From: a virus
Lineage: Duplodnaviria; Heunggongvirae; Uroviricota; Caudoviricetes
Reading direction: 5' to 3' (one strand)
Virus record (IMG/VR): IMGVR_UViG_2703718829_000008
Location: 1 to 43,438 of that record
DNA: 43,438 nt
Part shown: positions 1,697 to 42,431 of the stretch, piece by piece
How the letters are laid out: the number at the start of each line of letters is the position of its first letter
Numbering within the stretch: the stretch's first letter is position 1
Translations under genes and position numbers: made by a program
The notes under the pieces: generated by a model
What the model was told of the DNA's origin: nothing
Database searches by the model: none
Seen by the model: only the letters and a program-made list of their open reading frames with translations

Positions 1697-2851
1697 TTAA
1701 ATAGTATACCCACTTACACCAACAGTTAAGCTAGATACTGATGATGTTGTCCAAGTGAATGTATAATAAATTGTTTGAGGGTTCTGGATTAGAAGCTCAT
1801 AGTAAAAATCGACGCCAGTAGATCTACTTAAACCAGCATATGCCTGGAAATACCCTACATCCTGGGTATCAGAAGCAATTGAAGCAGCTGCATAACCATC
1901 ACCTTCCCCTGTGTTACAAAACACATAACCAGTACAGGTTGCTGCGTTTTTCGGGATCGCGTTTGTAAGAGAAATTGGAGTATACCCACCTGGGTTGCTA
2001 CTGGTTGACAGTACATCAACTCGCTGGGTAGCGAACTTTCTCCCTCTTTGGTACCCAATTTTTAACAGCGCCCCAGATGTTGTTCCCCACACCGATACCA
2101 AAGCGCTCGCCGTATATCCTGCTGGCATGTTTGCACCACCATATACCGTGGGAGCAATAATAGAAGTGACGTCCTGAGCAAGTAATGCCGAGGTATCTGT
2201 CGTCGGGTTATAAATCAGGTAAATTGCAACCCAACCACTGGCTGGCGCACTACCAGTATCCATGCCACCCGCCCCAGTCGTGGTGAGATTGATGGTTTTG
2301 TTGACCGAGCTTAAACGGTACTGCTTACCAGATAATGACTCACCAACAATGACTTGATCAGCAGTGAACGTTGCTGATGCCGACGCTATTGCCACGCTCA
2401 TTTTCTGGTTAACAGCCTGACCAACCACGCCGGTGAATGATTCTCGCATCTTGAGGTAATCACTTAGCGGCGACCACCCAGCTGAAGAAGTATTAGGGTC
2501 GTTTGTGTTGTTGTTGATAGTGCTGATATAAATCGTTGCGCCGTCATCACTGATGAGAACAGCTCCAAGAGGATACCCTCCAACCGCCGTTGAAAAATCT
2601 GAGTCAAAAGCATTAAGAGCGCCTGCGCTAGACCATCTGCAAAGGGAAGACAACTCATACAAGATTTGATTCATGTCCTGCCCTTTGGGAGGAAGGCCCC
2701 CGGCAGATTTCAAAATCATTGTTATTGGTGGGAATCCTAAATCGTAGGATGCTGTATTATCTCCAGCTGGAGTTGTCGGCAGAAGATCCTCTCTTTGACC
2801 ATTTACTCCAAAAGGTTTTGGTTGTTTTTTGGGTGAGTCAGAGCGATTCAT
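1697..2851 (-). CDS. Tail fibre protein
   Basis: 384 aa; N-terminal conserved tail-fibre motif (GGLPPKGQDMNQIL...), Gly/Ser/Thr-rich distal part; last gene of the tail module. Confidence 0.6.
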   Translation of the reverse strand: MNRSDSPKKQPKPFGVNGQREDLLPTTPAGDNTASYDLGFPPITMILKSAGGLPPKGQDMNQILYELSSLCRWSSAGALNAFDSDFSTAVGGYPLGAVLISDDGATIYISTINNNTNDPNTSSAGWSPLSDYLKMRESFTGVVGQAVNQKMSVAIASASATFTADQVIVGESLSGKQYRLSSVNKTINLTTTGAGGMDTGSAPASGWVAIYLIYNPTTDTSALLAQDVTSIIAPTVYGGANMPAGYTASALVSVWGTTSGALLKIGYQRGRKFATQRVDVLSTSSNPGGYTPISLTNAIPKNAATCTGYVFCNTGEGDGYAAASIASDTQDVGYFQAYAGLSRSTGVDFYYELLIQNPQTIYYTFTWTTSSVSSLTVGVSGYTI

Positions 2852-2853
2852 AC

Positions 2854-3492
2854 TTAATTCCTATAAAATGTGCCATCATTAAACGGGTAGGCGTCAGATG
2901 AAAAACCGAAATAAGGACTAATAATTTTTCGAATATTTACCTGAACACCACTAGGAACTGGCATTACTTCATAATTTGTGAGAATAGATTCCTCGTATGG
3001 TGCAAGTTCAAACTCGAATGTTATTCCAATGGTCATATCTCGATAATTCACACAGTATGCCCTTCCTCTTTGAAAAAATAATATCTTTAAAAACTTGTTG
3101 ATTTCTGGAATCGTAGCAATACTTATGTTCGTAAACGCTTTGCAAAATATGAGTGTTCTGTAAGCCTCGTCACTCAATCTAACATTTGTTGTCTCCTGTG
3201 CTCCTCCAAAAAAAGGAGAGTTGTTGAACGGAGCGGGGTAATTTGGTTCTGCATTATCAGCTTCACTGAATCCGAAGGAATTGGTCTCTATAGGTGAGTT
3301 AATATAGCGACTTATCCCTACTATTTTCCCCCACATATCCAGGCCGAATGTATCACAGGTAGTCAAATCCCATACTTTTTTAATAAACTCATCAGTGAAA
3401 TCATCAAGGCTAATTGCCTGATTAAAGGTATCAATGATGGATAGTAATTTTTTGCTTGCAGAGTACTGGGTAAGAATTGTGTCCTCCCACAT
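2854..3492 (-). CDS. Tail/baseplate-associated protein
   Basis: 212 aa ORF tightly packed between tail fibre and baseplate J-like gene. Confidence 0.35.
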   Translation of the reverse strand: MWEDTILTQYSASKKLLSIIDTFNQAISLDDFTDEFIKKVWDLTTCDTFGLDMWGKIVGISRYINSPIETNSFGFSEADNAEPNYPAPFNNSPFFGGAQETTNVRLSDEAYRTLIFCKAFTNISIATIPEINKFLKILFFQRGRAYCVNYRDMTIGITFEFELAPYEESILTNYEVMPVPSGVQVNIRKIISPYFGFSSDAYPFNDGTFYRN

Positions 3493-8631: not shown

Positions 8632-9554
8632 TAATACAGATGAACAGAAGGCGGCAATTCTTTATTCTTAAGCCTTATCCATGCGGAAAGATTTGTTGGT
8701 CCGTCTGGCTCATTGATATCAACATCTCGTGTGTGGTTGATTAAAACGTCTCTCGCCGTTCCGATAACATACGAGAACTCATGGCCGTAGTCGTAGCACC
8801 TGCCAGAATAGTTTGATTGAATGTGCTTTAGCGCCGGATACAGTTCGCGGAATAATGCCTGTGAGCGGTTGGCATAATCCCATAACCATACAAGGCTGTT
8901 TGCTTCTTTTGCAGAAAGCTCGTTGGTTTTCTTCTCTTGTTTGCCGATGAACTCACCTTCAAGTGGAACTCGAGCTGCAAGTGACAGTGCTTCGGCAAAC
9001 TGCTCCTCACTGATTTCTTTGTATGAACACCCAAAATGAGATTTCAGTGACGACCACATGGTGATCATCGCCTTAGCCTGTTTTTCTTTTGGCAGAGACT
9101 GACCTCGACTCATGACGAGTTGTTTAATGGCTTCCTGCTGTTCAGTGGTGATTTTCCCCGGCAACGCCTTTTTAGCTTTGCGTGGATTAACCACATGGCC
9201 TTTAGTCCAGTACTCGTAGAGCACATCGTCACACTCTTCCTGATACTGGATTACCTTGTCGCGGATTTCAGGACGGACTTTGTTAGGACTGATGCTGTTC
9301 AACCAAGCTGCCAATTTTCGTAAAGCCATACAAATCATGGCTTGCACCCCACCGGCAGAAGGTATGGTGATTTCCACCATACCCTTCGAGAAGCGTTGAG
9401 AAATCTTCTTATGTTGAGATTTCCAATCTAGCCCCATTCCCTCAACGATAGGTTTCATTGGGGTGTACGGTTCGCCGTTGTGATTGACAACATAAAGCTC
9501 TGCGCCGTGGAATGGTACATTGATAGTTGATACCGCTGTTGCTATACTTTTCAT
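8631..9554 (-). CDS. Antirepressor-like protein (AntA-type N-terminal domain)
   Basis: 307 aa; lies downstream of an Arc-like gene and divergent from an Mnt-like gene, as in P22 immI. Confidence 0.55.
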   Translation of the reverse strand: MKSIATAVSTINVPFHGAELYVVNHNGEPYTPMKPIVEGMGLDWKSQHKKISQRFSKGMVEITIPSAGGVQAMICMALRKLAAWLNSISPNKVRPEIRDKVIQYQEECDDVLYEYWTKGHVVNPRKAKKALPGKITTEQQEAIKQLVMSRGQSLPKEKQAKAMITMWSSLKSHFGCSYKEISEEQFAEALSLAARVPLEGEFIGKQEKKTNELSAKEANSLVWLWDYANRSQALFRELYPALKHIQSNYSGRCYDYGHEFSYVIGTARDVLINHTRDVDINEPDGPTNLSAWIRLKNKELPPSVHLY

Positions 9555-9620
9555 GTCAGTTTTTCCTCAATACTTACTGGCGATTTAAGCCCTAGATACT
9601 CGCAATATCTGGGGCTTTAC

Positions 9621-9767
9621 TCATTCTGGACAAACAATCCCGTCCTTAGCTACCGACTCCTTAAGCCTCCTCAACACCTCATTGCTGAATGACCGATCAT
9701 CCTTTTTCGCTGACTGCTCCAAAGCTTTTTCGAGCCATTCTGGCATCCTTAACGTTTTTACTTTCAT
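9621..9767 (-). CDS. Arc-like ribbon-helix-helix repressor (48 aa, below track cutoff)
   Basis: Hand translation MKVKTLRMPEWLEKALEQSAKKDDRSFSNEVLRRLKESVAKDGIVCPE; SD AGGAGC 4 nt upstream of ATG. Confidence 0.5.
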   Translation of the reverse strand: MKVKTLRMPEWLEKALEQSAKKDDRSFSNEVLRRLKESVAKDGIVCPE

Positions 9768-9780
9768 TTTCGCTCCTTTG

Positions 9781-9836
9781 GTATGCGGTACGCATACATA
9801 GTATGTAGGTACGCATTGATAGTCAATAGATACCTA
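9781..9836. promoter_or_regulatory. Divergent promoter/operator region between arc-like and mnt-like genes
   Basis: Three palindromes: GTATGC-n5-GCATAC (9781-9797), TACATA-G-TATGTA (9795-9807), ATTGA-TAG-TCAAT (9815-9827). Confidence 0.4.
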
Positions 9837-9872
9837 CATATCCTGTGGTAAAAAATTATTCAGGATACGCTG

Positions 9873-10115
9873 ATGTCTGAACGCAGGTACAAGAACCCAC
9901 AAGTTAATCTTCGACTTCCTGTGGAGATAAAGGATCGCCTAACCGCGTTAGCTGAGGCGAATGGCAGATCTTTAAATGCAGAAATGGTTGCAGCTCTAAG
10001 TGCGTGGGCAGAAGAAAATAAACATGTTCACTCACTTAGCCTTTCTTCCTTAACCGAAAGATTAATAGCTCTTGAGAGAGAGGTTGCAGCCCTTAAAGAA
10101 GCAAACATCAAGTAA
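9873..10115 (+). CDS. Mnt/Arc-family ribbon-helix-helix repressor
   Basis: 80 aa; 'LTALAEANGRSLNAEMV' resembles P22 Mnt 'AEANGRSMNSEL'; divergent from arc/ant. Confidence 0.6.
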   Translation: MSERRYKNPQVNLRLPVEIKDRLTALAEANGRSLNAEMVAALSAWAEENKHVHSLSLSSLTERLIALEREVAALKEANIK

Positions 10116-10138
10116 GAAGACGATATTACGAGGTTGCT

Positions 10139-10606
10139 ATGGCATGTCTTAGCAAGGAAGAAAATGAAATCATCAATGTAGAATTTAAAAAAGCATCAGC
10201 AGATGAGTTGCTGATAATCAAGAAATTAATTATCGATGTTAAGAACCATAAAGGGCTATACCAAGATGTCGTAAAGAATGGCGCAGACCTCTACAGTTCA
10301 AAACTTGACATCATGAGAGAAACCGGCTTAGAGGAGATGACCTCCGGTATTCTTGCGAGAACGCTTTGGGGTATCACGCGACCAGAAAAAGAGAACACAA
10401 GACACCTAAGGGTCGGGATTAATGAAGCTGAGTGGTGCTTTGTGGAATGCATATGTAGACACCCCGCTCACCGCCTTCTTCATGGAAAGAAATACGCCAT
10501 CCGCAAAGGAATGAAGATTGGTTTTTTCAAACACATCCACCCTGGACAACTTGTAGGGTGTGGATGTTTATCTAGCCCCATAATTCCAGGATTAAAAAAC
10601 ACTTGA
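10139..10606 (+). CDS. Hypothetical protein co-transcribed with mnt-like repressor
   Basis: 155 aa, AT-rich, SD GAGG upstream, 24 bp after mnt-like stop. Confidence 0.4.
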   Translation: MACLSKEENEIINVEFKKASADELLIIKKLIIDVKNHKGLYQDVVKNGADLYSSKLDIMRETGLEEMTSGILARTLWGITRPEKENTRHLRVGINEAEWCFVECICRHPAHRLLHGKKYAIRKGMKIGFFKHIHPGQLVGCGCLSSPIIPGLKNT

Positions 10607-10965
10607 TAGCGGCCGCAAAGCAGATTGCCACGAAGTTGTTTGCAAAAATACTCCATGACAAGTTAGGACTTGAATAAGTGCTCATGCCGTGCTGATAGCT
10701 CTACTAGCAACTTCATCGCTTCTACCGCGTCTGCCGAGGTTGATTTAGGTGACGCAACAATGGACCTGAGTGTGCTCTATAAACTACACAGGGATAGAGA
10801 ATATGCCAAATTTAGCTTTATCACGGCGGCTAAGTCTGTTTCATCATGGTTTGCGAGTTTGTCTGCTTCTCCTGGGGTATACCCACTCGCAACCAATCGT
10901 GCGTGCATCATCTCTTTGTAAGAGTGTTCAATTGCTTTCATGATAATAACCTATTGGTAATAACT

Positions 10966-10995
10966 TAAAAAAACCCACCTGACGGTGGGTTTTAT
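10966..10995. terminator. Bidirectional rho-independent terminator
   Basis: A7-CCCACC-TGAC-GGTGGG-T tract between convergent genes. Confidence 0.55.
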
Positions 10996-11414
10996 TAGTG
11001 CTTGTATAGGTTGAACTCTCTATCAAGCCATATAACAAAAAATGTCGATCCAAGACGATAACCAACCATGGCTTTCAAATCATCAAATCTAAAAGCCAAG
11101 AAATGATCTACGTCTTCCGTTATATGACTGGGGATACCTGCTTTAATTGCACACCTTGCAATCTTCTCAAATCCAAGCTTATGCCTACCTTGCTGCTTAA
11201 TCTCTGCCCATGTTAGTTGACTTAATCTGTATAATTTATCAGCTAAGCCAGCTTTCTCATCTTTTTGGCATTTCGTTATGCAGTGAGAGCTTTGGATGTA
11301 ACAGAATGAAAATTTCGGTTTCTTTTGATCTGAATTCCCCCCTGACTGCGGCCCTAACTTTAACTTACCTGTAGATTCAGCAGGGGGGATAATCCTTTTA
11401 GATTTTCTTGCCAT
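10995..11414 (-). CDS. Putative toxin partner of Panacea-domain protein
   Basis: Start taken at MARKSKR, 4 nt after upstream stop; basic N-terminal region; C-terminus (VGYRLGSTFFVIWLDREFNLYKH) reminiscent of RelE/YoeB-type strands. Confidence 0.35.
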   Translation of the reverse strand: MARKSKRIIPPAESTGKLKLGPQSGGNSDQKKPKFSFCYIQSSHCITKCQKDEKAGLADKLYRLSQLTWAEIKQQGRHKLGFEKIARCAIKAGIPSHITEDVDHFLAFRFDDLKAMVGYRLGSTFFVIWLDREFNLYKH

Positions 11415-11418
11415 CTCG

Positions 11419-11868
11419 TTAGTTAATCCGAGTTGCAAAGTACTCTGCCATCTCCTTAGAGCTAATTTCAGAACCACCAACACCCTCAATATAGTTTGAT
11501 CTCCATGGTGACTCTTCGTGTGTCATGTTCCTCAGTTTCCAGGCAGAAAATTGCCCAAAAACATCCCAGACTTCTTCTAATAGCTCTAACTGTTCTTCGC
11601 TGAATTTTTCAGCATCAAAAGACTCTGGAGAAGGGATAGCGCCATTACCATATTGTTTATAACGGCGATAAAGCTCAGGAACAACAGGGCCATGCATCCA
11701 GGCTTCCATCTTATTCTGAAAAAGAGGCTCGCCAAGCAACGCCAATGAAAAACCCTGAGCATAGTAAACAAGCTTTTGTAATTTTAAATTAGAGATTGTG
11801 TCACCGCTATCCTCGTCACACCGCGACAGGAAGTAGTCGGCGACATCAAAACAAGTAAGCATGAACAC
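11419..11868 (-). CDS. Panacea-domain (DUF4065, SocA/GepA-like) protein, putative antitoxin
   Basis: 149 aa; 'NLKLQKLVYYAQGFSLALLGEPLF...EAWMHGPVVPELY' matches the DUF4065 pattern as I recall it. Confidence 0.6.
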   Translation of the reverse strand: MFMLTCFDVADYFLSRCDEDSGDTISNLKLQKLVYYAQGFSLALLGEPLFQNKMEAWMHGPVVPELYRRYKQYGNGAIPSPESFDAEKFSEEQLELLEEVWDVFGQFSAWKLRNMTHEESPWRSNYIEGVGGSEISSKEMAEYFATRIN

Positions 11869-12286
11869 ACCTCCATCTTGATAGCCACAGCTAAGTATCC
11901 AACTATGTCAAATGTCATTTAATACTATAACAAAGCTATCAGCAATCCTTCGGAGGCTAACTTACAACCACTTTAGCGACATGTTTAAACCATTACGTTT
12001 CACATTTACTGCATTTTCGCTGAAGTTACCTATAAGGTAATGTCACATTTCCTGCAAGTTTCATGCAATGTTGAAAAGTGAGCTATTCACTTTTCTATGA
12101 CACCAAACACCAAAAATAGCACTTTTTGCTAAATCATTCGTCCAAGTTGTGGATGGTTTGTCGTTGACACGTTTTCACACACCACTCCACCAATAAAGTA
12201 TCATCTGCTATCCTACGCAAAACTAACTGTTGCGTGTTTTTTCTTCATTTAATGGGTAATTGAAATAACCAATACGGATCTCTAAA

Positions 12287-36448: not shown

Positions 36449-37156
36449 ATGGTTCAGAATGAAAAAGTGCGCAAAGAATTCGCCCAGCGGCTAGCGCAAG
36501 CCTGTAAAGAAGCTGGTCTTGATGAACATGGTAGGGGGATGGCCATAGCCCGTGCCCTTTCTCTTTCGTCCAAAGGCGTTAGCAAATGGTTTAATGCTGA
36601 GTCTTTACCGCGTCAGGAAAAAATGAATGCGCTTGCGAAATTTCTAAACGTTGATGTTGTTTGGCTTCAGCACGGCACTTCGTTAAATGGAGCGAATGAT
36701 GAAGATACTCTTTCATTTGTTGGCAAATTAAAAAAAGGGTTAGTGCGCGTGGTTGGTGAGGCAATTCTTGGTGTTGATGGTGCCATCGAGATGACCGAAG
36801 AGCGCGATGGGTGGCTCAAAATTTATAGCGATGATCCAGATGCCTTTGGTCTTCGTGTGAAAGGAGACAGCATGTGGCCCAGAATAAAATCAGGAGAATA
36901 TGTACTCATTGAGCCTAACACCAAAGTATTCCCGGGTGATGAGGTGTTTGTCAGAACCGTTGAAGGACACAACATGATTAAGGTTCTTGGCTATGACAGA
37001 GATGGAGAATACCAGTTTACAAGCATCAACCAGGACCACAGACCAATAACGTTGCCTTATCATCAAGTAGCAAAGGTGGAGTATGTGGCTGGTATTCTGA
37101 AGCAGTCCCGCCATCTGGATGACATCGAGGCAAGGGAGTGGCTGAGAGATTCCTGA
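36449..37156 (+). CDS. cI: CI-type repressor (HTH + S24 LexA-like autopeptidase domain)
   Basis: 235 aa; N-terminal HTH, C-terminal 'RVKGDSMWPRIKSGEYVLIEP' S24 peptidase motif. Confidence 0.85.
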   Translation: MVQNEKVRKEFAQRLAQACKEAGLDEHGRGMAIARALSLSSKGVSKWFNAESLPRQEKMNALAKFLNVDVVWLQHGTSLNGANDEDTLSFVGKLKKGLVRVVGEAILGVDGAIEMTEERDGWLKIYSDDPDAFGLRVKGDSMWPRIKSGEYVLIEPNTKVFPGDEVFVRTVEGHNMIKVLGYDRDGEYQFTSINQDHRPITLPYHQVAKVEYVAGILKQSRHLDDIEAREWLRDS

Positions 37157-37262: not shown

Positions 37263-37640
37263 ATGAGCGATAAAGAGTTTAAAGTACTTGATTTTGATGA
37301 TTTTGCTCATTATTTGAGCACGTTGAACGGCGAACAAATTTGTCCAATGTGTATGGAAGAATCATGGACGCTTTTCGCCCCAAACAAGCTTCCTCCAGAA
37401 GACGAGGATAGGTATGTAATAAGTTCTATCCCAGGATCACTTATTTCAAGTAAAAAACCTGAAAAATCAAATCTCTTCTTCAGAAGTTACAACAACGATG
37501 TCCTCCTGATGCAATGCAGAAATTGTGGATACATGGCATTTTTTAATTATAAAAAAGTCCAAGAAAACCTTGAATCAGGGGATTATATAAAAAAAGAAGA
37601 TATAGATATGGTGGATGAAAATGACAAATCAGAAGACTGA
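37263..37640 (+). CDS. Hypothetical Zn-ribbon protein in the rexA slot
   Basis: 125 aa; CPMC...CRNC Cys4; acidic C-terminus; AT-rich; same strand as cI. Confidence 0.5.
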   Translation: MSDKEFKVLDFDDFAHYLSTLNGEQICPMCMEESWTLFAPNKLPPEDEDRYVISSIPGSLISSKKPEKSNLFFRSYNNDVLLMQCRNCGYMAFFNYKKVQENLESGDYIKKEDIDMVDENDKSED

Positions 37641-38100
37641 TTTCTTCCGTCCAATGGAGTATGATAATAACTATGAGCAATTTGGTGTTATAGAAGCACA
37701 CAGGAATGGTCGTTCTACTCCGTCATATCAGCCAGGCACCATTGGTAAGGATATCCCGGTTATTATTGCGCATAAGTTAAGCGATCAACCAGCAGGGGGT
37801 GAGCCACAGATGAGCGTAAAATCACTGTCACGTTGGGAGTTTTGGCTAGGGATTTTCACTGCCATTATTGGGATATTTTCCATTGTTGTAGGAGCAACGT
37901 GGACAATTTCTAATAATATCAATGATAAGATTAATGCATCAAGACAAGAGCTAACTGGGAACATCCAATCCAGTCGAGCAGAAATCACGGCAAGAATTGA
38001 CAGGCTCGAAGATAAGATGGAGTCTAATTTCAAAGAAACATCATCGAATCTGTTCAAAATACAGGCAATTCTAGAAGCAAAATCCGACAAAGAAAAATAA
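37615..38100 (+). CDS. Hypothetical single-pass membrane protein with C-terminal coiled coil in the rexB slot
   Basis: 161 aa (alternative ATG at 37621 with SD GGTGGA); TM helix WEFWLGIFTAIIGIFSIVVGATWTI; overlaps upstream gene. Confidence 0.5.
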   Translation: MKMTNQKTDFFRPMEYDNNYEQFGVIEAHRNGRSTPSYQPGTIGKDIPVIIAHKLSDQPAGGEPQMSVKSLSRWEFWLGIFTAIIGIFSIVVGATWTISNNINDKINASRQELTGNIQSSRAEITARIDRLEDKMESNFKETSSNLFKIQAILEAKSDKEK

Positions 38101-38441: not shown

Positions 38442-38560
38442 AAACAGATACCAAACGAGATGGGTTTGGCGGTGATGTGAATTGCAGCTGCAACGACAGC
38501 AACCAGAAGACCAGCATCTGGCGCATCACCACCAAAGCCATTTCACATGAGGAAAACATC

Positions 38561-38896
38561 ATGACGGTAATCGTGTACGGAAAATCAACATTTGCAGGAA
38601 ATGCCAAAACTCGCCGTCATGAGCGGCGCAGAAAGCTGGCTATTGAGCGTGATGCTATCTGTAACATCATCGATTCGATCTTCGGCACAGACAGTGAGGA
38701 ACCTGTTCAGGAAGCCCCGAGAAAACGTTTAAGCCTTTCTGAAAAAGCAATATCACTCGGAAGCCTTCGCTGCAAGAAGGCAGAAGAAGTCGAGCGTAAA
38801 CAGAACCGTATTTACTACCGCAAGCCACGCAGCGAAATGGGTGTGACTTGTGTTGGTCGCCAGAAAATGAAATTAGGCAGCAAACCACTTATTTGA
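38561..38896 (+). CDS. N: N-type transcription antiterminator
   Basis: Start at ATG with SD GAGGA; Arg-rich motif KTRRHERRRK; C-terminus 'YYRKPRSEMGVTCVGRQKMKLGSKPLI' resembles lambda N. Confidence 0.75.
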   Translation: MTVIVYGKSTFAGNAKTRRHERRRKLAIERDAICNIIDSIFGTDSEEPVQEAPRKRLSLSEKAISLGSLRCKKAEEVERKQNRIYYRKPRSEMGVTCVGRQKMKLGSKPLI

Positions 38897-39401: not shown

Positions 39402-39572
39402 ATGCAACAGTTCGCTATTGCAGGGGCGGCATCGGTTCGCCCTTTCAACCCGATTTTATCGGTACAGCATTCACGAAAAAATATTTTAACCGGAGCAGAC
39501 TTTAAACAACCAAGAATGAAAAGTTTGCTCGAAAAGCTTTGGGATATTTTGAAACAACAAGGCCGTCCATGA
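39402..39572 (+). CDS. CIII-like protein
   Basis: 56 aa from internal ATG with SD GGAG; 'MQQFAIAG...' and '...LWDILKQQGRP' resemble lambda CIII ends. Confidence 0.45.
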   Translation: MQQFAIAGAASVRPFNPILSVQHSRKNILTGADFKQPRMKSLLEKLWDILKQQGRP

Positions 39573-39727
39573 GTTTTACAGATAACTGGTTAGACGAAGA
39601 ATTCATTCGTCAGATGAAAGAATTAATCGGTAACGAAGGAGATATTCATGTCACTTGCAACCACAGTGAAGGAGAGCAAGTTACAGAGGCGCATGTACAC
39701 GCAGAAAGCTCTCTGGTATCGACATAA
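39569..39727 (+). CDS. Hypothetical small protein
   Basis: 52 aa, ATGA overlap with CIII-like stop. Confidence 0.25.
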   Translation: MSFTDNWLDEEFIRQMKELIGNEGDIHVTCNHSEGEQVTEAHVHAESSLVST

Positions 39728-39798
39728 TGGCGACCGCGAAGGAATGCGGGTATGCCTTAACTTGTCCCGAGTCGAAGTATTAAATCAGCGTTATTTCC

Positions 39799-40434
39799 TT
39801 GGGCCGTGTCCATTCTGAGAACAATCATATGAGCAAAGAATTTTACGCAAGACTGGCAGCTATTCAGGAGAATCTGAACGCGCCAAAGAATCAGTACAAC
39901 TCATTCGGTAAATATAAATACAGAAGCTGCGAAGACATTCTTGAAGGCGTTAAGCCGTTACTGAATGGCCTGTTTTTATCAATCAGCGATGAAGTTGTGT
40001 TGATTGGTGATCGGTATTACGTGAAAGCCACGGCAACTATTACCGATGGCGAAAACAGTCATACGGCAACCGCCCTTGCACGAGAGGAAGAAAGCAAGAA
40101 AGGAATGGATTCTGCACAAGTTACGGGAGCTACAAGCTCTTATGCACGCAAGTATTGCCTCAATGGTTTGTTCGGCATTGATGATGCGAAAGATGCAGAT
40201 ACCGACGAGCATAAACATCAGCAGAACGCAGCAGCAAAGCAATCAAAACTATCACCTACACCTGAACAGGTTCTAAAAGCATTCACTGACGCAGCATTGC
40301 AGAAAAACACCGTGGAAGAGCTTAAACAGGCGTTCGCCAAAGCGTGGAAGATGCTCGAAGGCACACCGGAGCAGCACAAAGCGCAGGACGTTTACAACAT
40401 CAGACGAGACGAATTAGAAGGAGCTGCTGCTTAA
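39799..40434 (+). CDS. erf: Erf-family single-strand annealing recombinase (probable true start at 39829)
   Basis: 'MSKEFYARLAAIQENLNAPKNQYNSFGKYKYRSCEDILEGVKPLL' matches P22 Erf as I recall it. Confidence 0.7.
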   Translation: MGRVHSENNHMSKEFYARLAAIQENLNAPKNQYNSFGKYKYRSCEDILEGVKPLLNGLFLSISDEVVLIGDRYYVKATATITDGENSHTATALAREEESKKGMDSAQVTGATSSYARKYCLNGLFGIDDAKDADTDEHKHQQNAAAKQSKLSPTPEQVLKAFTDAALQKNTVEELKQAFAKAWKMLEGTPEQHKAQDVYNIRRDELEGAAA

Positions 40435-40817
40435 TGGCACATTCGATTACTGTAAGACTAAACAAGCCCGCAAGAGAGTTTCAGGCCGGGGAAAATATCG
40501 GATTCAACATCCGTGCTGGCGTTCAGTATTACGATCGCCAGACAAAAAAGAAAGAATGGACAAACTACAGCGCCGTTGTATTTGCCAAGCCAGGAGCGCA
40601 AGCGGATTACTACCGTAGCGTTCTTGTTGAAGGTGGCATTGTGGAAATTACCGGAGAAAACATCAGGGTTGATGTTTATCAGGGGCAAAATGGTCAATCA
40701 ATTACTCTTGAATTACTGAATGCAAAGATTGGATTTACAGCTTCAGGAAATGGCCCGCAGCAGCAAAGTAGTAACCAGCAGAACACTCCTGTATACGACG
40801 ATTCCATCCCATTCTGA
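40434..40817 (+). CDS. Short SSB-like OB-fold protein with SSB C-terminal tail motif
   Basis: 127 aa; ends ...PVYDDSIPF (compare E. coli SSB ...DFDDDIPF); TAATG overlap with erf stop. Confidence 0.45.
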   Translation: MAHSITVRLNKPAREFQAGENIGFNIRAGVQYYDRQTKKKEWTNYSAVVFAKPGAQADYYRSVLVEGGIVEITGENIRVDVYQGQNGQSITLELLNAKIGFTASGNGPQQQSSNQQNTPVYDDSIPF

Positions 40818-40840: not shown

Positions 40841-41137
40841 ATGCCAGCGCCTCTGTATGGTGAGGATGACCCACGCCGATGTTCCGGCAATTCCGTATCG
40901 GAGGTGCTGGATAAATTCAGAAAAAACTACGACCGGATAATGTCTCTACCGCAGGAAACGAAAGAGGAAAAGGAATTTCGCCACTGTATATGGCTTGCAG
41001 AGAAAGAAGAACGCGAGCGAATTTACCAGACATCAATCCGACCATTCCGCAAAGCCACATATACCCACTTCCCTGAATATATCGACCCGCGCCTGCGTAA
41101 TTACCGCTCACGCTATGGCGCTATCAGTAATGACTGA
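40841..41137 (+). CDS. Abc2-like (anti-RecBCD) protein
   Basis: 98 aa; position after erf; partial recollection of P22 Abc2 N-terminus. Confidence 0.35.
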   Translation: MPAPLYGEDDPRRCSGNSVSEVLDKFRKNYDRIMSLPQETKEEKEFRHCIWLAEKEERERIYQTSIRPFRKATYTHFPEYIDPRLRNYRSRYGAISND

Positions 41138-41147
41138 GGAATTAACA

Positions 41148-41438
41148 ATGAAAACAATGAAGCTAAACATCGACCTCGGAAAATACGTTATTACCGGAAC
41201 AAAACACGATCTGATTCTTAGCAAAAGAGGAATTGTCAAAGAAGGCGAGAATGCAGGGAAAGAAACACTAAGCCGTATCGGTTATTACAGCAAGTTTGAG
41301 CATCTGGTTAAAGAGTTATGCAACCGTGAAATCCTGTTATCTCAGGCGCAGACGCTACAGGATATTCAGCAACATATCGAGACTTTAGGTGTGTCACTTA
41401 GCATGGCTATTGACCAGTTCGTGGAGAGTAAATCATGA
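41148..41438 (+). CDS. Hypothetical protein
   Basis: 96 aa from ATG with SD GAGGA; track ORF begins upstream at 40995. Confidence 0.3.
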
Positions 41439-41602: not shown

Positions 41603-41732
41603 CTGGACATGCAACGATCCTCGACATGTGCTGTGGCAGCCGCATGTTCTGGTTAGATAAGAATGACGAACGGGCGAGATAAGCGATCGGTTAAGTGCTA
41701 TAGTAATGCGCTTTTGTATTTATGGAGTGAAT

Positions 41733-42431
41733 ATGAAAAATATCCTACTGGCATCATTGTTAGTGGCATCGCCGGGTGCATTTGCAGCCAGCTTTGACTG
41801 CCAAAAGGCTTCGACAGCAATCGAACATAAAATCTGCGATAACGAACGTCTGTCAAAATTAGACGAACAGCTTAGCTCTGCCTATTCTAGTGCCCTCAAA
41901 GAAAACCCAGAGAACGCAGACACCCTAAAAATAGTTCAACGTCAGTGGGTAAATATGCGTGGAAAACTCACTGATAATAAGGCTCTGGAGCTGGCTTATC
42001 TTATCCAAATTAATGGCCTCAAAGGTTTGGGGAGTTCAGTCAGCGTAACAGCGGCCAATGAGATACCCACGTCGACGCAGAAACATTCTGAAGAGCAGGA
42101 AGAAACAAGTAAGGCAGAAGTTAAGTCGGTCAAGAACGGCAATAAGCTAACCTTAGAGTCATTCCGAGCTAAATATGTAGAAGTAGATGGTGAGTATTAC
42201 AGCACGACATCCATTCCTAGAGGCAGTTCGTTCTTGTTCACTTGCGCCAGTCGTATTGCTGATGACCAAGTGAATGTTTGGAAGAAACATGCAGCCAAAG
42301 AGGGCAAAATCGACCTATTCTTTGAGGTTGAGAATCACTTACACACTGCTATGTTGAACGCCAATTTCCAGAAGTTGAATTCAGACCCTGCCAAAAGAGG
42401 TATTTGTAATCTGATTAACGCAGTGCCGTAA
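41733..42431 (+). CDS. Secreted DUF1311 (LprI lysozyme-inhibitor-like) domain protein
   Basis: Signal peptide MKNILLASLLVASPGAFA; 'FDCQKASTAIEHKICDNERLSKLDEQLSSAY' DUF1311-like motif; SD GGAG. Confidence 0.5.
   Translation: MKNILLASLLVASPGAFAASFDCQKASTAIEHKICDNERLSKLDEQLSSAYSSALKENPENADTLKIVQRQWVNMRGKLTDNKALELAYLIQINGLKGLGSSVSVTAANEIPTSTQKHSEEQEETSKAEVKSVKNGNKLTLESFRAKYVEVDGEYYSTTSIPRGSSFLFTCASRIADDQVNVWKKHAAKEGKIDLFFEVENHLHTAMLNANFQKLNSDPAKRGICNLINAVP

Follow-up and report, generated by a model that had tools for sequence, protein, structure and literature searches.

Location and start region of the gene

The window analysed here is a 43,438-nt stretch of DNA from a Caudoviricetes virus (positions 1 to 43,438 of IMG/VR record IMGVR_UViG_2703718829_000008). 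We studied a 127-codon gene that lies in it between erf, which encodes a single-strand annealing protein, and abc2, which encodes an anti-RecBCD protein. A sequence-only reading of this DNA had placed a 127-aa product at 40434–40817 and described it as having an oligonucleotide/oligosaccharide-binding (OB)-fold-like core, translational coupling to erf and an acidic tail like that of the host single-stranded DNA (ssDNA)-binding protein (SSB). Two functions were offered, a genuine phage SSB for Erf-mediated recombination or a decoy for host proteins that interact with SSB. The open reading frame (ORF) and its translation bear out the product at these coordinates. The genes and features of the locus are listed below with the evidence for each; pLDDT is the predicted local distance difference test score of AlphaFold2 (AF2) models.

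40434..40817 (+): predicted gp40-type (SSB-1b) SSB gene, 127 aa, stop codon included (ORF and translation, HK97 Gp40 identity, PHROG 44, AF2 model, fold matches)
40434..40748 (+): predicted OB-fold core, residues 1–105 (AF2 pLDDT, hhalign, conserved residues)
40749..40793 (+): short disordered linker rich in Q, N and S, residues 106–120 (low pLDDT, no consensus)
40794..40814 (+): acidic C-terminal tip YDDSIPF, residues 121–127 (conservation in relatives)
40418..40436 (+): translation initiation region (AAGGAG Shine-Dalgarno sequence at 40418–40423 and TAATG at 40432–40436, read from the sequence)
39829..40434 (+): erf, single-strand annealing protein and proposed partner (PF04404, E 5e-44; PHROG 155)
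40258..40431 (+): Erf C-terminal three-helix domain, residues ~144–201, proposed docking module for the SSB tip (AF2, domain sharing)
40841..41137 (+): abc2, the anti-RecBCD gene and third member of the module (PF11043, E 3e-61; PHROG 656)

The start codon of the SSB gene (ATG, 40434–40436) shares its A with the erf stop codon (TAA, 40432–40434), giving the TAATG overlap, and the strong AAGGAG Shine-Dalgarno sequence lies 10 nt 5′ of the ATG. The reading frame comprises 127 codons, is closed by a TGA stop codon at 40815–40817, and specifies a product that ends in ...NTPVYDDSIPF. Of 239 related loci, 234 preserve the TAATG coupling to erf that the sequence-only reading had pointed out. Through this overlap and a Shine-Dalgarno sequence of its own, the SSB would be made together with Erf.

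Family and fold of the 127-residue protein

The protein belongs to the gp40 family of phage HK97, both by full-length similarity and by the position of its gene between an annealase gene and abc2. It is identical to HK97 Gp40 (NP_037725) at 121 of 127 residues (95%, E 9e-92, full length) and to HK446 gp31 at the same level (95%), and PHROG 44, 'single strand DNA binding protein', matches residues 2–127 with E 7.8e-27. The genes for HK97 Gp40 ('SSB-1b') and for Gp31 of HK446 and HK75 occupy the same position between erf and abc2 as the gene described here. A database search returned 318 relatives, most of them unnamed proteins of Enterobacterales and others forming a remoter group from metagenomes, and the gp40 core recurs in a distant form in about 330 Vibrio phages. 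At an identity of at least 90%, the gene is present in 579 of 5,426 complete E. coli genomes; among the matches listed from those genomes, every record is annotated as 'hypothetical protein'. A scan of the protein against the PADLOC defence models gave no match at E≤0.01.

E. coli SSB stacks ssDNA at four positions, W40, W54, F60 and W88. We compared a 63-sequence alignment of the gp40 family, by hhalign, with E. coli SSB and repeated the comparison with a phage SSB of the PF00436 type, for which the probability was 91% (E 1.2e-6). In both alignments Y32, F50 and Y82 pair with W40, F60 and W88 of E. coli SSB, and W54 is paired with W42 or Y45, depending on the alignment. On these pairings, aromatic residues appear to occupy all four stacking positions, and throughout the gp40 family the residues found there are conserved or aromatic. 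F16, F24, R27, Y33, Y45 and F50 are invariant in the family, conservation reaches at least 90% at Y32, K38, K40, W42, K52, Y60 and K78, and many of the conserved core residues are aromatic or basic.

The AF2 model of the protein has a mean pLDDT of 84, and values exceed 90 over residues 1–105, which form a beta-barrel of eight strands plus one helix. Structure prediction followed by a structural search had been proposed as a check on the OB fold; the fold was predicted, and in a fold search the model matched SSB and PriB with an identity of at most 19% in the alignments. The OB-fold-like core of the sequence-only reading is thus upheld by the model, the fold matches and the hhalign result, and the core is predicted to have an OB fold of the SSB type. 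That it binds ssDNA, and in what oligomeric state, we infer.

The SSB identity of this family was already known as a published prediction, and the gene is ordinary and widespread. A survey of the Rec modules of 325 lambdoid phages had reported that the predicted structure of HK97 gp40 (AlphaFold3 fold) resembles bacterial SSBs, and had named it SSB-1b (PMC12315714, Genome Res 2025); our finding is therefore less novel than it first appeared. The same survey describes an 'HK75 functional type' of module, with an anti-RecBCD function, an SSB and an annealase and with no nuclease, in 27 of the 325 phages (PMC12315714). The module in the window is of this type.

A conserved host-like tip at the C-terminus

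YDDSIPF, the heptapeptide that closes the protein, departs from the enterobacterial-type SSB ending FDDDIPF by two exchanges, a conservative Y/F at –7 and S/D at –4; a canonical phage-borne SSB (locus L183, 2610–3071) ends in EPPMDFDDDIPF. The resemblance to the host tail that had been drawn from this single sequence extends to the relatives. A D-x-IPF end is found in 62 of 68 distinct gp40 alleles from IMG/VR loci, and 81 of 107 full-length cluster representatives end in xPF. Most relatives fit the consensus [FYW]-D-D-x-[IP]-P-F, in which P126 is at least 90% conserved, and FDDSIPF, WDDEPPF, FEDDIPF and DFDDDIPF are among the variants in the family. Phage 720R6 carries three synonymous codon changes that leave D-D-S-I-P-F unchanged. 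These comparisons indicate that the tip is under selection and did not arise by chance.

The linker that precedes the tip behaves differently. Residues 107–119 have pLDDT values below 50 in the AF2 model, and homologues show no linker consensus and lengths from about 14 to about 100 residues. A disordered linker followed by an acidic tip that ends in I/P-P-F is the arrangement of the bacterial SSB family. The window protein shares its OB fold, stacking aromatics, disordered linker and FDDDIPF-like tip with bacterial SSBs (PF00436, E. coli SSB) and with the 'SSB-1' proteins of the ES18/Sf6 type, but differs from PF00436 SSBs in having a linker of about 15 instead of about 50 residues, S in place of D at tip position –4, and a diverged sequence (the low identity given above) that Pfam and NCBIfam models do not recognise. 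Because most relatives retain the [FYW]DDxIPF tip but share no conserved linker before it, a genuine, highly divergent phage SSB of the HK97 gp40 family is well supported as the gene product, by sequence comparison and by the predicted structure.

The reference allele of HK97 departs from this pattern. Its gp40 gene (L001, NC_002167, 4074–4127; window 40770–40817) has an extra A, CCAAT versus CCAT, 12 nt before the stop codon, and its product ends in YDDSNPILI with the IPF tip lost. It is the sole such allele among the 68; the window and nearly all other alleles carry the tip. The 1-nt insertion may have arisen by mutation in a laboratory strain or by an error in sequencing. The main text of PMC12315714 contains no discussion of the gp40 tail, and the frameshift may be the reason that the tip goes undiscussed for gp40 in the literature.

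In a minority metagenomic lineage the tip is absent and the OB core is kept, with ends such as ...NFNQPQR, ...NNNRG and ...QGGGF. These proteins bear on the second function offered by the sequence-only reading, that of a decoy or competitor. A host-like tip would here soak up ExoI, RecQ, RecJ, RecO, PriA and the chi subunit of DNA polymerase III, blunting host repair and nuclease action on phage DNA, and ssDNA binding would be secondary or absent. Such a role is in keeping with a tip that is nearly of the host type over seven residues, and in some relatives identical to the canonical one over 11, with a linker that is very short beside the ~50 residues of the PF00436 SSBs of this analysis, and with the adjoining abc2, another gene for host manipulation. 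A decoy would have no need of an OB fold, however, and no part of the family is better conserved than the OB core, which has conserved aromatic and basic residues where SSBs bind DNA; canonical SSBs are, moreover, interchangeable with gp40 in the slot (below). Because the core stays conserved in the natural tip-less relatives, which still come after an Erf gene, a pure decoy is unlikely, and we rate the decoy function overall as quite improbable. Between the two functions first offered, a genuine SSB working with Erf is favoured by the fold, the aromatics, the equivalence of SSBs in the slot and the retention of the core when the tip is lost, and the decoy has found no specific support.

Two further observations concern the tail as such. 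A gp40-type SSB of Leminorella (P0094; L088, 4001–4417) ends in PPMDFDDDIPF, 11 residues identical to the end of the canonical PF00436-type SSB in L183, and this identity on unrelated SSB cores indicates an exchange of tails between them. In some SSBs of the slot the motif DDDIPF is internal: 15 residues (APIGLPYP..) come after it in Proteus prophages (L253, L254 and L256, ~2662–3189), and NQGGR follows it in P0104 and P0113. With residues after it, the Phe carboxylate would not be free in these cases, which is odd for a motif that is normally read at the C-terminus.

The position after the annealase gene

At four loci (L183, L184, L186 and L189) canonical SSBs of 153–157 aa replace gp40 after an Erf whose N-terminal domain is about 91% and whose C-terminal domain is 80–84% identical to that of the Erf encoded here. 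The replacing SSB genes show the same one-base stop/start overlap, and their products end in DFDDDIPF, DFPDDIPF or DDSDIPF; canonical and gp40-type SSBs are interchangeable after the same type of Erf. The gp40-type SSBs themselves come after Erf in prophages of E. coli, Salmonella, Citrobacter, Cronobacter and Serratia and after shorter Erf proteins in metagenomic phages, and in Leminorella one comes directly after a 287-aa Sak4-like AAA_24 annealase, again with a stop/start overlap. Judged from these neighbourhoods, the slot after Erf appears to be an SSB slot.

In P22 the slot between erf and abc2 is filled by Abc1, and in HK620 by an unrelated SSB, HkaK. Since the gene described here has exactly the position of P22 abc1, it could in principle encode an Abc1-like accessory of the anti-RecBCD function. 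P22 Abc1 shares this gene position but is a 94-aa protein of unrelated sequence that has no IPF tip; homology to it was rejected (hhalign probability 0.3%), and the fold predicted for the window protein is SSB-like. The 'abc1' of HK620, in the same slot, proved to be an SSB (PMC5928155). An Abc1-like accessory is accordingly a most improbable identity for this protein. Homology to HkaK was rejected as well (hhalign probability 0.4%).

The HK620 SSB (HkaK, 'SSB-2') nevertheless resembles gp40 in its annealase–SSB–abc2 slot and in its host-like tip, NDYPPF. Experiments showed that these last six residues are needed for the binding of Sak4 to SSB-coated DNA, and also for a 10-fold stimulation of recombineering (PMC5928155). 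The HK620 SSB is thus the best functional model for gp40. It differs in its partner, which is Sak4 and not Erf, and HK620 Sak4 is without the C-terminal three-helix domain found on Erf.

The Erf C-terminal domain and tip-bearing SSBs

P22 Erf and the Erf encoded in the window are 75% identical overall, about 93% over the N-terminal 125 residues and about 42% over the last ~60 residues, which form the C-terminal domain. This domain of ~55 aa, predicted by AF2 to be a three-helix bundle (pLDDT 86), is without a Pfam family. A copy with 52% identity forms the end of the 287-aa Sak4-like AAA_24 protein of Leminorella (L088, 3834–3995). A genome scan with a 7-sequence alignment of the domain, covering one genome per species, yielded 11 loci, in which the carriers are Erf (two subtypes), a Rad52_Rad22 protein (Sodalis) and AAA_24 proteins (Leminorella and Pantoea). 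When the representative library was searched exhaustively with phmmer, 19 matches resulted, mostly Erf, with one borderline RecT fragment (E 9e-4), and the domain alone found only 11 close fragments in a 5.8-billion-protein database.

At all 11 loci of the scan, the next gene overlaps the stop codon and encodes an SSB that has an acidic motif of the IPF or PPF kind. Three of these SSBs are gp40-type, four are of the long PF00436 type and four of the short PF00436 type; those of Proteus have 15 more residues after the acidic motif. Looked at from the side of the SSB, 109 distinct pairs have a gp40-type SSB that bears the tip, and in 106 of them the domain is present upstream. Five pairs combine the domain with a tip-less SSB, each through what is evidently a recent defect: the frameshift of HK97, a truncation in two cases and a point change in the Pro in two others. 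In the three gp40 lineages that are naturally tip-less, the upstream protein is without the domain; two of these proteins are Erf, and the third is a 276-aa protein in L271. Because SSB–annealase pairs are far from phylogenetically independent, this co-occurrence is only suggestive. The junctions between annealase core and domain and between domain and SSB have recombined while the order 'domain, then tip-bearing SSB' persists, which argues for a functional link, and the pattern suggests that the domain docks the SSB tip.

Lambda Red-beta has a small three-helix C-terminal domain on an annealase core, as is predicted for the Erf encoded here, and the Red-beta domain binds the SSB tip (PMC6393309). 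The last 7 residues of SSB set its compatibility with RecT and Red-beta (bioRxiv 10.1101/2020.04.14.041095). Between the Red-beta and Erf domains we detected no sequence or structural match; a Foldseek search of the Erf domain against the PDB, with the little search power that small helical bundles offer, gave no match at E <1 and did not list Red-beta. With no structural link from the domain to that of Red-beta, the docking site on Erf is put forward as a hypothesis. Extending it, we suggest tentatively, and with rather less than even confidence, that the three-helix domain of Erf is a portable adaptor that receives the acidic IPF tip of the phage SSB encoded with it, so that domain and tip would form an exchangeable pair compatible with any annealase core (Erf, Rad52-like, RecT or Sak4-like) and any SSB core (gp40-type or canonical).

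The protein might instead be a general phage SSB for replication or ssDNA protection, for example providing additional SSB for rolling-circle replication or shielding ssDNA from host nucleases and sensors, with no specific link to Erf and with an adjacency that reflects operon organisation. SSB genes occur outside recombination modules in many phages. Some relatives of gp40 are without a recognisable annealase upstream, and an SSB fold with a host-like tip might recruit PriA and the replisome of the host. Operon organisation of this loose kind is hard to square with a stop/start overlap with the annealase gene that is kept in nearly all related loci, with the recurrence of the gene directly after three unrelated annealase types, or with the co-occurrence of the tip and the annealase C-terminal domain; HK620 also provides a precedent for an annealase that is stimulated by the SSB from the same slot (PMC5928155). 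We consider a general SSB with no link to Erf unlikely.

Genomic context and other features of the window

Two regulatory genes lie upstream of erf.

36449..37156 (+): S24/helix-turn-helix repressor
38477..38896 (+): P22-type N antiterminator (PF25694)

Small genes at the cIII and kil positions also lie upstream of erf on the + strand, and this set of genes identifies the region as a lambdoid early-left operon, running from left to right. Its nucleotides are 95–98% identical to those of vB_EcoP-720R6, HK542, HK446, HK106, HK97, Sf101, CUS-3 and Stx-converting phages. Window positions 1–25000, by comparison, contain mostly genes on the – strand and barely match, at the nucleotide level, any of 50,697 phage records. 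The closest is a Vibrio phage (13% coverage, 70% identity), and the only P22-like match is an ant/mnt/arc immI-like patch at 8640–12226. With the first 25 kb nearly unmatched and the early region so close to lambdoid phages, the genome is strongly mosaic.

Between the repressor and N are two overlapping genes, 37263–37640 and 37615–38100 (+), at the position of rexAB/sieB in other lambdoid phages. One product has 125 aa with a CxxC...CxxC pattern, the second, of 161 aa, contains a hydrophobic stretch, and searches against Pfam and PADLOC gave no match for either; the pair may be an exclusion or defence cassette. Just 5′ of erf, a 52-aa ORF at 39569–39727 (+) is 84% identical to HK446 gp33. HK75 Gp33 is reported to be sufficient to trigger the P2 OLD defence protein (preprint 10.64898/2026.07.10.737580). 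A 56-aa ORF at 39648..39818, which overlaps this true 52-aa counterpart, was ruled out as the gp33 counterpart, having no similarity to it.

After abc2, the gene at 41148–41438 (+) encodes a 96-aa product that matches DUF5405 (E 6e-5) and PHROG 154, 'replication initiation protein', a name that looks doubtful for a product of this size from the early-left operon. Further on, in the early-left 'ea' region, the gene at 41706–42431 (+) encodes a 241-aa protein whose N-terminus resembles a signal peptide and which contains a weak LprI (lysozyme-inhibitor) domain (PF07007, E 1.7e-5); the gene is probably a moron.

Proposed role of the SSB and its significance

We think it probable that the phage is lambdoid and P22-like, that the gene supplies the SSB of an Erf–SSB–Abc2 recombination module within its early-left operon, and that this SSB is a genuine, divergent member of the gp40 family and the partner of Erf. 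Its OB core would coat ssDNA exposed by Abc2-modified RecBCD or by replication, and the flexible tail would present the host-like acidic tip YDDSIPF. The tip would recruit Erf to the coated DNA, by a contact made most probably through the C-terminal three-helix domain of Erf, and this recruitment would keep the SSB from blocking annealing. Given its near identity to the tip of the host SSB, the tip is probably bound as well by host proteins that recognise the latter.

A number of points weigh against this interpretation. A Pfam scan of the protein found no SSB match (none at E≤1), and the NCBIfam ssb model TIGR00621 scored 14.2 bits (E 0.04) against a cut-off of 53.95. Because these searches and a search of PDB sequences with the single protein gave nothing usable, the SSB relationship is visible only to PHROGs and to profile and structure methods; a profile search of PDB sequences reaches SSBs only at E about 0.5. 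The host SSB has nearly the same tip, which leaves the need for a phage SSB puzzling. Nor is the tip strictly required for phage viability in the laboratory, because the HK97 reference allele has lost it through the 1-nt insertion. Three tip-bearing relatives come after proteins without the Erf-type domain, and P22 Erf has a homologous, diverged domain with Abc1 next to it and no phage SSB. According to PMC12315714, such SSBs have not been studied experimentally, and in 2026 the homologue from HK75 and HK446, Gp31, was still termed 'uncharacterized' in the preprint that deals with Gp33 (10.64898/2026.07.10.737580).

In itself the identification matters little: it gives a name to a gene that RefSeq labelled 'hypothetical protein' in the records listed and agrees with the published fold-based prediction. 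What is added here is modest, namely the conservation of a host-like tip in the family, the loss of that tip in HK97 by frameshift, and a portable annealase domain that travels with genes for tip-bearing SSBs. As the HK97 type sequence has a frameshifted tip, an intact allele such as this one is preferable for experiments. The Erf–gp40 pair, together with the common annealase domain, offers a compact and testable model of annealase–SSB matching, which bears directly on the portability of recombineering between bacteria. If the adaptor proposal is true, gp40-type proteins would be minimal SSBs selected to pass ssDNA to the phage annealase, and not to host RecA/RecFOR, yet could still make use of host proteins with affinity for the SSB tip, and the adaptor pairing would explain how annealases and SSBs are mixed and matched in lambdoid Rec modules.

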